Source: Eledone cirrhosa (Eukaryota). From it: DNA of 64,000 nt. The position numbers and the translations under genes were made by a program. The notes beneath the pieces were generated by a model. That model did no database searches. It saw only the letters and a program-made list of their open reading frames with translations, and had not been told where the DNA came from. The stretch's first letter is position 1; each line of letters opens with the position of its first letter. Below are positions 549 to 61,881 of the stretch, in pieces. The stretch spans positions 14,384,001 through 14,448,000 of the forward strand of contig OZ024743.1 in NCBI GenBank assembly GCA_964016885.1. Reading direction: 5' to 3'.

Positions 549-1537
549 ATATATGAATTATAAGAATGAAAGAACTGTTCAAAACAGTTTTATGCTTACA
601 ACTGTTTCCTCCAAACCGAGGTTTGGATTCTTCGGAGCAATTTATTAATGAATGAACACTTATATGACCTCCATTTCACCCAAGAGACATACAGATACAT
701 ATGCAAATATTGTGGGTCAACATTCATTACAGCATTTAGAGTGGCAGTACATACTTAGAGATTACATTCATATTAAAAGATACAATCAAAAATACAGGTT
801 AAAATACAACATGAAAATAAGCAGTTATATAGTGCAAAGGTTATATGTGTGGCAAGCACGTGTGTCTTATTTATATTGTGTGGCAGAGAGTTACGTGTAG
901 TAGAATCACTTAAGTAGGTAAACAAGAGTGTTAGGTTGGTTGATCTGGTGACAAATTCTTTATATGATTGTTATAGTCTGTGTGTGGAGAAATAATATAA
1001 GCATTAAAAATAATGTTCTTCTACTACACGTAACTCTCTGCCACACTATATAAACAAGACACACGTGCTTGCCACACATATAACCTTTGCACTATATAAC
1101 CGCTTATTTTCATGTTGTATTTTAACCTGTATTTTTGATTGTATCTTTTAATATGAATGTAATCTCTAAGTGTGTACTGCCACTCTAAATGCTGTAATGA
1201 ATGTTGACCCACAATATTTGCATATGTATCTGTATGACTCTTGGGTGAAAAGGAGGTCATACAAGTGTTCATTCATTAATAAATTGCTCCGAAGAATCCA
1301 AACCTCGGTTTGGAGGAAACAGTTGTAAGCATAAAAATGTTTTGAACAGTTCTTTGATTCTTATAATTCATATAACTGCTCTGTAAATCATCTGATGTTT
1401 TTACATTGAGCTACTTAACTTACTGGTAATAAGGTAGTAATATATTACTGCCTACCACTATTTAGGGTTTATATAAAAATATATATAACTGCAAAAGCTT
1501 TTTGTATTTACATAACCATAAATAGTATAATTAATAC
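549..1537. mobile_element. Fold-back PLE pseudo-LTR pair (arms ~549-905 and ~1019-1374, plus tail to ~1537)
   Basis: About 355-bp inverted arms with scattered substitutions, a hammerhead motif in each arm, (TA)n on both sides. Confidence 0.8.
1285..1331 (+). ncRNA. Type I hammerhead ribozyme motif, U4C core (mirror copy 593-639, minus)
   Basis: tgct-CCGAAGA-a-tccaaacc tc ggtttgga-g-GAAA-cagttg-TA-agca: stem I tgct/agca, 8-bp stem II. Confidence 0.75.
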
Positions 1538-1661
1538 TATATATATATATATATATATATATATATATATATATATATATATATATATATATATATATAT
1601 ACACATATATAATACGTATGTATGTATATATATATATATATATATATATATATATATATAT

Positions 1662-2130
1662 ATGGTGGTATTGGGGTTGATTCTTCTATATCTCTTTCTC
1701 TCTTTGAAGAGTACGGCCACTACTTTATATCCATGTAGGAGAACTCCTACCTATGCGCTGAACGAGTGTGACTTATTAGTCCAGCCAGCGACTTGAAAAC
1801 TCTGGTACAAACACTACACTTGTGACAATTATTGACACATAGTGCTGGGCCCATGGTACCATGTGACGACAAGTGCAGAGAGATCTCCAGATATAAAGCA
1901 ATGCCTGTGCCGTGAAGCTTTTATAGCGAGCAAAGGCACTGCACAAAGCCAGTCACACTCTCTTAACCAAGATGATATTTACCAAAAAGAAGAACAAGTC
2001 AACATCATTGGATACCATCAGAGTTGCAGGTGTTATATCAGAGTTTTCCTTCTCCTAGAATTCTGCCTTGACAAAGGCTAAGGGGTCATCTCTCCCGGTG
2101 ATTTTGGATGGCCATTGACTCTTAAGAGCT
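1662..2130 (-). mobile_element. RTE-clade LINE 3' end (C2H2 zinc finger + 3' UTR)
   Basis: Minus strand encodes [21 protein letters not shown]; ends in (TA)n; homologous to 47003-47415. Confidence 0.75.
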
Positions 2131-59084: not shown

Positions 59085-60120
59085 ACCAAATTATGTTCCT
59101 AGTTCTATTTCTTTTTTGTCCTTTGGAATTATTGTAATGCTTTCTATTATAGTTGTTAATGTTGTTGCCGTAATTAAAAAAGTTGTTACTTTGTTTAGTT
59201 TGTTTATCATTATCTATGTACACAATCTTATCAGCATACCCTGCCCTAGCTAGTGCATCATTATAGTATTGGGCCTTTTCGTCAAAAATCTTTCTATTCG
59301 ACGAGATCCTAGAGATACGTTTTTGGACTGAGTTTACTATAGTGTTTTTGACAGATCTGGGGTGGTTAGAGTTAAAGTTGACATAGTTTGAGCTTTCATT
59401 CAACTTGTGAAAAGGATAGTGGAGACATGTGTTGAGATTTAATGTTATATCTAGGAAATTGACTATTCTATGGTTGTTCTCAATTTCTATTTTAAGGTTA
59501 AAGTATTTAAAAAGTTTTGTAATTTGTTTACATTTTCTATTTAGTTCAGGGTTATTATTATTAATAAGTAAAAGCATGTCATCCCTATATAAACCTCCGG
59601 TAGTACCAGGTATTTTCCTATGTAGCGAATTGATTAAAAATAAGCCCACAAGGTCAGTTACCTGAGCTGAGTCGGAAGATCCCATAGTTATGTCAAAATT
59701 GCTATCTCTATCTGCTCTGGTCCATAATTTGTCATCAAATTCTATCAAAGTTTTCCTAGCCGATAATATAATATGCATTTCTTTGCTAGTTAGGTCCGTA
59801 TGTTTGAACGCGTAATTTAGTGCCTTATTTAGTAGACTAGGGGTAATAGAAGAATAATAGTTAGCTATATCAAGTTGAATAAACCTATTATTATTGTCAT
59901 ATTTAATTTGCCTAAACCACTCAACAACCTCTCCAGTTCCCTTCCACAAGCTCAGGTTAGATACATAATCCAAGTTCTTAATTTGCAGTATCACCCTGTC
60001 AAGAATGTTTTTGCTTAATTTGCCCAGGTCCGATTTTGAAGGTGCGATCAATCTAACTGGCAGGTCAATCTCAAAATTCCTCTTGTGGTCCTTCATATTG
60101 ATCTTCGGTTTCCTGGGCAA
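59053..60120 (-). CDS. Penelope-like element reverse transcriptase, 5'-truncated
   Basis: ORF contains PLE RT motifs KDHK..F, VRLIAPSKSDLG, FIQLDIANYYSSI, ITMGSSDSAQVTDLVG, GLYRDD, NFLDITL and the thumb motif SNHP. No internal stops. Confidence 0.93.
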   Translation of the reverse strand: MPRKPKINMKDHKRNFEIDLPVRLIAPSKSDLGKLSKNILDRVILQIKNLDYVSNLSLWKGTGEVVEWFRQIKYDNNNRFIQLDIANYYSSITPSLLNKALNYAFKHTDLTSKEMHIILSARKTLIEFDDKLWTRADRDSNFDITMGSSDSAQVTDLVGLFLINSLHRKIPGTTGGLYRDDMLLLINNNNPELNRKCKQITKLFKYFNLKIEIENNHRIVNFLDITLNLNTCLHYPFHKLNESSNYVNFNSNHPRSVKNTIVNSVQKRISRISSNRKIFDEKAQYYNDALARAGYADKIVYIDNDKQTKQSNNFFNYGNNINNYNRKHYNNSKGQKRNRTRNIIWFAPPPFLTKH

Positions 60121-60357
60121 ACCATGTAAACCTTCTTTCCTGATATATATATATATATATCAGGAAAGAAGGTTTACATGGTCAGTATCACCCTGTCAAG
60201 AATGTTTTTGCTTAATTTGCCCAGGTCCGATTTTGAAGGTGCGATCAATCTAACTGGCAGGTCAATCTCAAAATTCCTCTTGTGGTCCTTCATATTGATC
60301 TTCGGTTTCCTGGGCAAACCATGTAAACCTTCTTTCCTGATATATATATATATATAT

Positions 60358-61881
60358 CAGGAAAGAAGGTTTACATGGTTTGCTATACAAAAAAGTTTTT
60401 AATCACATAGCTTACATTTGTTTCACTGAACTGGTATGTCTAGAGATCGCTATCCGCCTAATTTTGCGTCACTCGATCGCCAATACAGAATTATAACCAG
60501 TCAGATCTTCGGAGCATGCGAGAATGAAGAAAATACACAGGCAAGAAAAGAAAAGAAAATATGGAGTAGTTATGGCATTCAATTAGAACAATAACAACAA
60601 CAATTATTACAACAATGCTATCAATAAACTATTTAAGGAGACCCTGACATTACTTAGGTGGGGGGTATATAATGTATCTAATGTTACGGCGTGAAAACCA
60701 GCTGTCATAAGGCAAAAAGTATCGTAGTGTGTATCAATTTTAAATTATAAAGATAAGCTAGTTTTTACAGTCTTTCTCTTCATCTTCAACAGTATACATG
60801 AGTGGGACCACTGTCAAAGCTCAATAGTTGTAGAGTTAATACAGAGGTTAACGAATTAATATACGCATATATTCATTAAGTATACTATTTCCTTCACAAG
60901 TCTATACCACACAATTGTCTGTAAATACCTCATCTACCAACAATCTTACTCCTTCTCAGCTGCTGCAATCATTTGATCCTAGATCCTAGTTTTTCTCATT
61001 TCACTACTACAATGTTACTTTACCTTCTTTTTGCCATAATTACAATTAGCACGCTTTTCTCTTTGCATGTATGTATATTTTTGTACGAGTGTATATTGAT
61101 GTGTATGTATGTGTCTATGTACACATATATGTGTATATATATTTATATATATATATGTGTGTGTGTGTGTGTGTGTGTGTGTGCGTGTGCGTAGATATAT
61201 GCGTATATTAATTCGTTAACCTCTGTATTAACTCTACAACTATTGAGCTTTGACAGTGGTCCCACTCATGTATACTGTTGAAGATGAAGAGAAAGACTGT
61301 AAAAACTAGCTTATCTTTATAATTTAAAATTGATACACACTACGATACTTTTTGCCTTATGACAGTTGGTTTTCACGCCGTAACATTAGATACATTATAT
61401 ACCCCCCACCTAAGTAATGTCAGGGTCTCCTTAAATAGTTTATTGATAGCATTGTTGTAATAATTGTTGTTGTTATTGTTCTAATTGAATGCCATAACTA
61501 CTCCATATTTTCTTTTCTTTTCTTGCCTGTGTATTTTCTTCATTCTCGCATGCTCCGATGATCTGACTGGTTATAATTCTGTATTGGCGATCGAGTGACG
61601 CAAAATTAGGCGGATAGCGATCTCTACACATACCAGTTCAGTGAAACAAATGTAAGCTGTGATTAAAAACTGTTTTGTATAGCAAACCATGTAAACCTTC
61701 TTTCTTGATTTATTATTACTCCAAGTGTTTACAACATAGGAATTACAGCATACCCGCAGCATCACTATGAAAACGCCTTGTTGAGTCAAACCAAGCCAAG
61801 CGTTAATATCATCCACTACCTGGAATACCATAACTGGACTTCACCTAAGTGGACTGCATTTAACTATTATTTGTTAATCCG
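60358..61881. mobile_element. Fold-back PLE pseudo-LTR pair (arms ~60358-60870 and ~61197-61703, plus tail to ~61881)
   Basis: About 510-bp near-identical inverted arms, a long-stem-II hammerhead in each arm, (TA)n at both ends. Confidence 0.8.
61551..61657 (+). ncRNA. Hammerhead, U4C core with ~80-nt stem II (mirror 60410-60516, minus)
   Basis: gct-CCGATGA-t-ctga ctggt...accag t tcag-t-GAAA-caaatg-TA-agc. The mirror has CCGAAGA, differing only at the variable position 7. Confidence 0.68.

Follow-up and report, generated by a model that had tools for sequence, protein, structure and literature searches.

Penelope-like elements (PLEs) of the Hydra clade combine a C-terminal endonuclease, DKT and RWK-like motifs and a CxCx5C linker with targeting of (TA)n, a hammerhead near the 3′ end, a partial tandem together with an inverted 5′-truncated copy, and a tail at one end (PMC8557442). 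How the tandem and inverted ends of PLEs originate is a named open problem (PMC8557442; PMC11167929). The present analysis concerns a stretch of 64,000 nucleotides of the Eledone cirrhosa genome (C4:14,384,001-14,448,000; assembly GCA_964016885.1, contig OZ024743.1; genome 3.0 Gb), hereafter the window, in which nine fold-back structures lie, most of them within microsatellite DNA.

Several described systems share parts of this architecture. The Poseidon protein PAc, acting in vitro, nicks and extends both strands of AT-rich DNA from two reverse transcription start sites that bound the tail, on an uncleaved RNA template, and a dimer is predicted (PMC11167929); the available text of that source gives no difference in start site between the strands and is silent on fold-backs, whereas the genomic data given below imply one site per strand within an insertion. 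Penelope pseudo-long terminal repeats (pLTRs) of Adineta vaga form head-to-head inverted repeats with junction palindromes and a tail on one inverted pLTR, which are explained there by self-priming on an antisense template; these are of low copy number, and the text available describes no recurrent mini form (PMC3846280). A tail on one inverted pLTR is likewise mentioned for Hydra-clade elements (PMC8557442), although the text available for these quantifies neither a one-tail rule nor a pile-up of 5′ ends. Opposite-strand pairs of minimal hammerheads in Schistosoma PLEs, spaced 100-700 bp apart, with the U3-A8 variant and a palindromic helix III, were noted as probably truncated PLEs, their junctions and ends not being analysed in the portions of the source at hand (PMC4209133). 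Non-LTR retrozymes are, like the smallest fold-backs described here, short, non-coding and PLE-derived, and carry a type I hammerhead, yet they form head-to-tail tandems that give circular RNA, whereas the 190-bp fold-back C of the window consists of head-to-head single units (PMC7229834; bioRxiv 10.64898/2026.07.22.740005). The head-to-head layout, the tail on one side, the opposite-strand hammerhead pairs and the (TA)n targeting are thus already published.

Judged by their sequence, the fold-backs are head-to-head, 5′-truncated insertions of several high-copy PLE families. Inverted repeats are present at all nine places named by an initial annotation of the window, as confirmed by masked self-BLAST, repeat finders and shuffles, the masked self-BLAST giving 13 local inverted sites in the window and none in each of five shuffles. 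The structures are labelled by letters in Table 1, and families are named by the same letters. Every family possesses a pair of 3′ ends separated by 36-175 nt, here called the short end and the tail end, and all seven complete elements of the window have one of each. In a scripted scoring, 63 of 64 long fold-backs were mixed, with duplicate rows removed and with interrupted, internal or cut arms excluded (B 16, D 13, H 16, G 11, E 7); families G and E were found by tail-bearing queries, so that only B, D and H are unbiased for this count. The sole tail/tail case is a script merge of two adjacent insertions, which a closer look shows to be tail/short. Predictions recorded blind, before the sequences were fetched, for 13 cut-off loci were correct in 12 of the 12 that could be tested, the remaining one having been destroyed by another insertion. 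Family C behaves similarly, with 93 mixed against 6 alike among 99 classified copies (148 loci examined). Either arm can be the longer, and a tail on the shorter arm is common; among copies with the common junction of C, 33 have the tail on the long arm and 25 on the short one, and each of two tail sequence types is found on both sides. There are hints that tail-end priming may come first. Single- or partial-armed C copies (L286-L435) keep the tail end in 27 cases versus the short end in 8.

For families B, D, E, G and H there are other copies with coding frames for PLE proteins, located upstream of the arms (first-look candidates: B 1581, D 2232, H 1766, G 1734, E 2615, of which 40 each were scored and 30 each fetched). 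In families B, D and H the frames hold a reverse transcriptase (RT) followed by a C-terminal GIY-YIG-type endonuclease, as in loci L178 (794 aa) and L203 (808 aa); in family D they are split by frameshifts in L184. Families B, D and H have DKT, RWK (D and H) or RWR (B), the CxCx5C linker, and CxxC and CxH near the endonuclease end; insertion into (TA)n, a partial-tandem pLTR and a tail are seen in L172, L173, L184, L189 and L203. By these motifs they are assigned, putatively, to the Hydra clade, whose features they display; their tails are ~160-175 nt long against 30-40 bp in the published elements, and their hammerhead cores are non-canonical (PMC8557442). Family G (L209/L210) has DKG, a C-X4-C-X2-C linker and a CCHH pattern, and family E the same linker and CCHH-type endonuclease, DKG not being seen in it; both are assigned on motifs to the probable Neptune/Nematis type. 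Long copies (L172, L173, L184, L189) are ordered as inverted arm, partial upstream pLTR, tail, open reading frame and pLTR. The 3′ untranslated regions (UTRs) are long, ~0.9-1.5 kb (~1.5 kb in B, ~0.9 kb in H), and since the insertions are also 5′-truncated, most of the long arms are non-coding by default. No frame was found in the 1.5 kb upstream of family A, and no coding copy of family J was traced.

The junctions of the long fold-backs are locus-specific. Those of B and D were found only in the window and in its 99% inverted duplicate (40 scored matches each), and the exact H-junction pattern had three matches, namely the window, the duplicate and a locus at C4:122.57 Mb, where the flanks are different, the tail is on the opposite arm and the register of the ATATAT microhomology (60867-60872 in the window) is shifted by 2 nt, which points to independent formation of the third. 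The remaining listed long junctions all differ, mostly with overlaps of 1-13 nt; for G and E the queries were 3′ arms. Fold-back G was joined within its own family's internal (TG/TA)n tract. For the long fold-backs, the suggestion that they form a self-propagating class of non-coding hairpins is therefore rejected, each being a truncated copy of its own coding family with a locus-specific junction, bar the one independent H locus. Two apparent cases of unit transposition were discarded: the second set of B, D and H junctions, around C4:13.9 Mb, where the whole window is duplicated with its flanks, and L003, a candidate copy of B in which the junction is shifted by ~10 nt on both sides, the arms are 92% identical to those of the window and the tail is swapped. 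The duplicate lies ~410 kb away (C4 ~13.90-13.99 Mb, L061-L070), may be a segmental duplication or an uncollapsed haplotype, and has, within the (TA)n to the right of B, an insert of 1.5 kb that the window lacks, built from a 592-bp tandem unit. At L016, L171, L164, L222 and L206, internal sequence is inverted and no second 3′ end is present, an arrangement nearer to L1-type 5′ inversions. Near-symmetric long fold-backs (L006, L084/L094, L093, L200, L204, L205, L213), in which the arms stop within ~25 nt of each other, are more numerous than scattered stops would suggest.

The junction of C, by contrast, recurs. The exact 29-letter pattern had 186 matches (control 0), and all 40 scored matches span the junction (30 aligned). 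Two patterns for the arm types gave 92 and 718 matches, and 90 of the first 91 of the 718, sorted by place, were taken as a sample. In this sample 75 copies stop at, or up to 5 nt past, a GGCTTT point 30 nt after a TATA box, 24 of them with the common junction and 51 with other joints at the same stop, while 15 extend upstream and bear promoter sequence: 11 of the 15 have a TATA-like box at -30, and 11 of the 15 a CCAAT at ~-82 and/or -63. The pLTR of Hydra-clade PLEs holds the transcription start (PMC8557442), and the TATA-bearing region seen here differs from the TATA-less internal promoter described for Drosophila Penelope (PMC2377424). Locus L386 reads (TA)n, pLTR from GCTTTCC, tail, the start of a Hydra-type RT (DKT-bearing; tblastn E 1.4e-11) and, past an internal deletion, a pLTR with promoter sequence, so that the coding copy begins where the mini fold-backs, or minis, are joined. 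No full-length coding copy of C was found among the 90 loci. Within C copies the two arms, of ~57 nt, share 26 non-majority bases, versus 6.2 (maximum 17) in 2000 permutations (n=58, the ungapped arm pairs). No head-to-tail tandem units were found among the copies examined, all being head-to-head or single; C is not a retrozyme, for want of tandems, and not a fixed unit. The recurrence of one junction at many loci, proposed in the initial annotation as a sign of transposition as a unit, is seen in C, at 186 loci. Its copies do not have the invariant internal structure and ends of a unit-transposing element resembling a miniature inverted-repeat transposable element, there being many joints at one stop and a tail on either arm. 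A junction at a shared stop, accompanied by many other joints, tails on either side and private arm variants, fits repeated de novo formation. An earlier impression that C is a pure hairpin family (0 of 60 copies linear with GCCC-side patterns) was abandoned, the patterns having held letters made by the junction, and a pattern from the other side found linear copies. In one C copy (L407:2500) the 5′ end is joined directly to TTAGGG repeats.

The reading preferred here, to which a probability of roughly 0.65 is given, is that the fold-backs would arise by two-primer reverse transcription and that the minis would be integrated pairs of "strong-stop" cDNAs and not a self-replicating hairpin class. 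Both nicked strands of a (TA)n target would each prime reverse transcription on element RNA, each target end priming once, with the pLTR end as one start and the tail end as the other; wherever each cDNA stops, the pair would be joined by short microhomology. Priming at the 3′ pLTR would yield long arms with scattered junctions; priming at the 5′ pLTR, or on short transcripts from the pLTR promoter, would let both cDNAs reach the RNA 5′ end just before the hammerhead, where they would join mostly via GG/CC. The recurrent junction of C would then exist because both cDNAs run to the RNA 5′ end and join through GG/CC. On the same reading the stop of C would be the transcription start, both primers would act on one RNA, the joint would form by annealing of cDNA to cDNA, and the minis would be promoterless dead ends. 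In LTR retroelements, minus-strand strong-stop DNA is a short cDNA, primed internally and extended to the 5′ end of the RNA, that is normally transferred, not integrated. In L1 twin priming two target ends prime on one RNA and microhomology joins the products, the segments of which do not overlap, unlike the fold-back arms described here. The proposal in the initial annotation that the structures are stereotyped products of PLE integration, with both DNA ends primed on the RNA 3′ region, is supported.

In family E, 7 of 11 non-target arms, at loci retrieved for unrelated purposes, begin within 11 nt of each other, the upstream edge lying ~32 nt after TATAAAA and ~40 nt before the hammerhead; by these distances it is the TATA box, not the ribozyme, that the stop follows. 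The corresponding cluster in family A comprises 14 of 36 arms, with starts within 16 nt around the core. Several observations weigh against the two-primer account. The pile-up of family A has no TATA box at -30, family K shows no sharp 5′ peak, its 5′ ends being spread out, and no pile-up is shown for B, D, G and H, where samples are small or biased. Among the 148 C loci, six copies violate the one-tail rule and 49 are single-armed or unclear. Only a single coding C copy was found, which is internally deleted. Gene conversion between the arms at a later time could also account for the variants they share. In 25 of 35 cases a non-parental G stands before the C stop, reduced to 6 of 16 once those explainable by the other arm are removed (p 0.048), so that the extra base expected from copying of the cap is only weakly seen. 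Finally, in L360 and L429 one arm encloses a junction together with a portion of the antisense arm, a hint of snap-back or of a mini having been copied.

Copies of the latter kind also bear on a reading in which C propagates itself as a non-coding hairpin retroelement: either strand would be transcribed from the flanking (TA)n, a Hydra PLE protein would carry out the re-insertion, and two primers on the RNA of C would rebuild both arms from the 3′ arm in each cycle. Such an element would account for one junction at 186 loci, about a quarter of the place-sorted copies (24 of 90), and C does keep both priming sites; it is nevertheless unlikely, as about two thirds (51 of 75) of the copies that end at the stop are joined in other ways there, promoter-bearing linear copies exist (15 of 90), the coding copy starts at the stop, the tail side is divided 33:25 with two tail types on both sides, and the minis lack the CCAAT/TATA region. 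Self-priming is a different matter: a single cDNA would fold at a palindrome and copy itself, or an antisense template would prime itself, and the tail would then be removed from one arm by endonuclease resolution. The frequent palindromic microhomologies and near-symmetric junctions, the capacity of the C cDNA end to fold as GG-AAAG-CC, C copies with a second arm of only 5-6 nt (L388, L416, L417) and the sharing of variants between arms all agree with it. What argues for two primers over self-copying of the first cDNA is that the tail is often on the shorter arm: a first cDNA is tied to the target, so that the copied, shorter arm cannot bear a tail that the longer arm lacks, yet 25 of the 58 C copies with the exact junction, and many long fold-backs, show just this. 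Snap-back would require both an intermediate that is free and precise removal of just one tail by the cut, and is regarded as distinctly improbable. That the palindromes are fold-back artefacts of assembly or library, or rearrangements after insertion, is least credible of all and very improbable. No listed short-read contig bridges the B junction among those searched, and the duplicate of the window is perhaps an uncollapsed haplotype; the arms, however, differ by 1-12% and show a rule-like asymmetry, both copies of the region share the junctions, the C junction is bridged by contigs from two runs (possibly the assembly's own sample), and the layout is known from other animals. In RNA contigs C was represented by one contig, at depth 2.4, in each of two equal-sized metatranscriptome runs (share 0.14), which speaks neither for nor against an RNA of C.

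The initial statement that most of the structures have a hammerhead in both arms was not borne out, as intact hammerhead-like cores in both arms are found in only four of the nine (B, D, G and H), all of them non-canonical (Table 1). Families B and H have a U4C core and families D and G a U3-A8 core, in predicted hammerhead-like folds; U3-A8 is a published PLE hammerhead variant of Schistosoma, and U4C and U4A cores were not found described in the available text of that source (PMC4209133). A strict hammerhead descriptor gave 6 sites in the window versus a shuffle mean of 1.55 (maximum 7), and as this is not clearly above shuffles, motif assignment rests on conserved position across families. 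No Rfam hammerhead family is among the 150 rows listed, of 217, for the window or among the 37 rows for C, the scans giving microsatellite and hairpin noise, and monomer folds of five hammerhead-like motifs were no better than those of shuffles. Fold-back arms contain the whole uncleaved hammerhead motif, and the predicted fold of a transcript spanning C is a rod of -66 to -73 kcal/mol (z -13 to -17). Under the two-primer reading the hammerheads would be passengers in fold-back formation, and a rod across C would bury them.

Table 1. Fold-back structures of the window and a neighbouring PLE remnant (positions are those of the window; signs after core positions give the strand)
Structure (extent)	Feature	Position	Strand	Ends, cores and remarks
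A (16-95)	partial fold-back, family A	14..95		18-nt left arm; right arm stops at short 3′ end; no complete hammerhead motif
B (549-1537)	left arm (long)	549..1018	-	short 3′ end ~549; hammerhead-like core CCGAAGA 635-
B	right arm	1019..1537	+	arm 1019-1374 plus 163-nt tail; core CCGAAGA 1289+; Hydra-type family
C (7475-7661)	left arm	7475..7598	-	~65-nt tail 7475-7538; canonical core CTGATGA 7596-
C	junction	7593..7603		at putative transcription start; family form of junction at 186 loci
C	right arm	7599..7661	+	short 3′ end; mutated core CTGATAA (G8A) 7604+
D (7742-9590)	left arm	7742..9005	-	158-nt tail 7742-7899; U3-A8 core TTGAGAA 7990-; truncated endonuclease frame 8293-9027
D	right arm	9013..9590	+	short 3′ end; core TTGAGAA 9500+; junction carries 7-nt insert
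I (20314-20512)	mini fold-back, family A	20314..20512	left -, right +	left: short end, begins at core 20379; right: ~90-nt tail; single core, without 5′ stem-I strand
E (43573-45568)	older fold-back	43573..45568		left short end; right ~62-nt tail; cores G5A-mutated in both arms, whereas family E has TTGAAAA; DKG/CCHH-type by endonuclease
J (45960-46190)	decayed fold-back	45960..46190		clear palindrome 45984-46088; decayed cores 46021-, 46051+; downstream GAAA lost
G (47663-48928)	fold-back	47663..48928		left short end; right 36-41-nt tail; U3-A8 cores TTGAAAA 47805-/48743+
H (60348-61881)	fold-back	60348..61881		left short end 60348-60872; right arm (+) with ~170-nt tail; cores CCGA[A/T]GA 60512-/61555+; Hydra-type family
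	Hydra-type RT and endonuclease frames of another family	58425..60339	-	5′-truncated, split by frameshift

Arm identity is 97.4% in B, 98.3% in D, 98.8% in H, 97.6% in G, 88-94% in E and 78% in the decayed J, and a head-to-head arrangement, with the arms facing outward, is found in B, C, D, E, G, H and I (the element at 20311). Two of the bounds first given needed extension, to ~7475 on the left of C and to ~20512 on the right of I, because each carries a tail on one arm. The 3′ ends point outward into microsatellite at seven of the nine places and not in every case: the left arm of A, ~18 nt long and without a 3′ end, adjoins non-microsatellite DNA, and the flanks of J are not TA. Nor are all the structures as unrelated in sequence as most of them are, A and I being of one family. 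Only D keeps coding sequence, as had been noted, in a frame of 245 aa that aligns to a family-B protein and has no Pfam match.

The element at 56.7-60.1 kb, which had been proposed to mobilise the fold-backs, is rejected in that role, being 5′-truncated, frameshifted, of another family and not a fold-back parent. It is capped 5′ by 26 nt of the family H short 3′ end in opposite orientation (59986-60383), inside an exact 197-bp tandem duplication, and a cross-family fold-back is possible there. At 56671-56960 lies a hammerhead-bearing end (core 56869-) of a family that often forms short fold-backs with one tail and one short end, its 5′ ends being mostly 200-295 nt from the tail end; the link between the frames and the tail end at 56.7 kb is putative. 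Another PLE family is represented at 9726-11525 by tandem 3′ ends (9759-10080 and 10394-10713), a hammerhead (10480-) and a GIY-YIG frame (11049-11525). Pfam searches with six frames of the window gave only a weak GIY-YIG match (E 0.018, 11052-11525) and a PX match judged spurious. A second decayed RT-like frame, Hydra-like by eye, occupies 51264-52282. Family K, at 49040-49371 and 56089-56512, has canonical CTGAAGA hammerheads (49137+ and 56361-), with upstream motifs that we take to resemble YY1 and NRF1 sites. A dispersed repeat of 130-180 bp, in about nine copies (12.2, 17.4, 17.7, 23.1, 28.2-28.5, 29.4, 41.2 and 62.8 kb), presumably resembles a cephalopod short interspersed element.

A counted one-tail rule and strong-stop minis were not found in the titles and abstracts searched, and supplementary repeat libraries might list such elements. 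If C were, after all, a hairpin retroelement, it would be a ribozyme-bearing inverted-repeat element that parasitises Hydra-clade PLE proteins, with hundreds to thousands of hairpin-RNA loci seeded in microsatellites. As the case of C illustrates, recurrence of a junction, even at many loci, is no proof that an element transposes as a unit. The near-strict pairing of a short end with a tail end connects the pair of known RT start sites with the two strands of the target, and offers a sharp prediction for work in vitro. If the minis are integrated strong-stop cDNAs, PLEs would share a step with LTR elements, and the transcription starts of PLEs would be readable from genomic pile-ups of 5′ ends.

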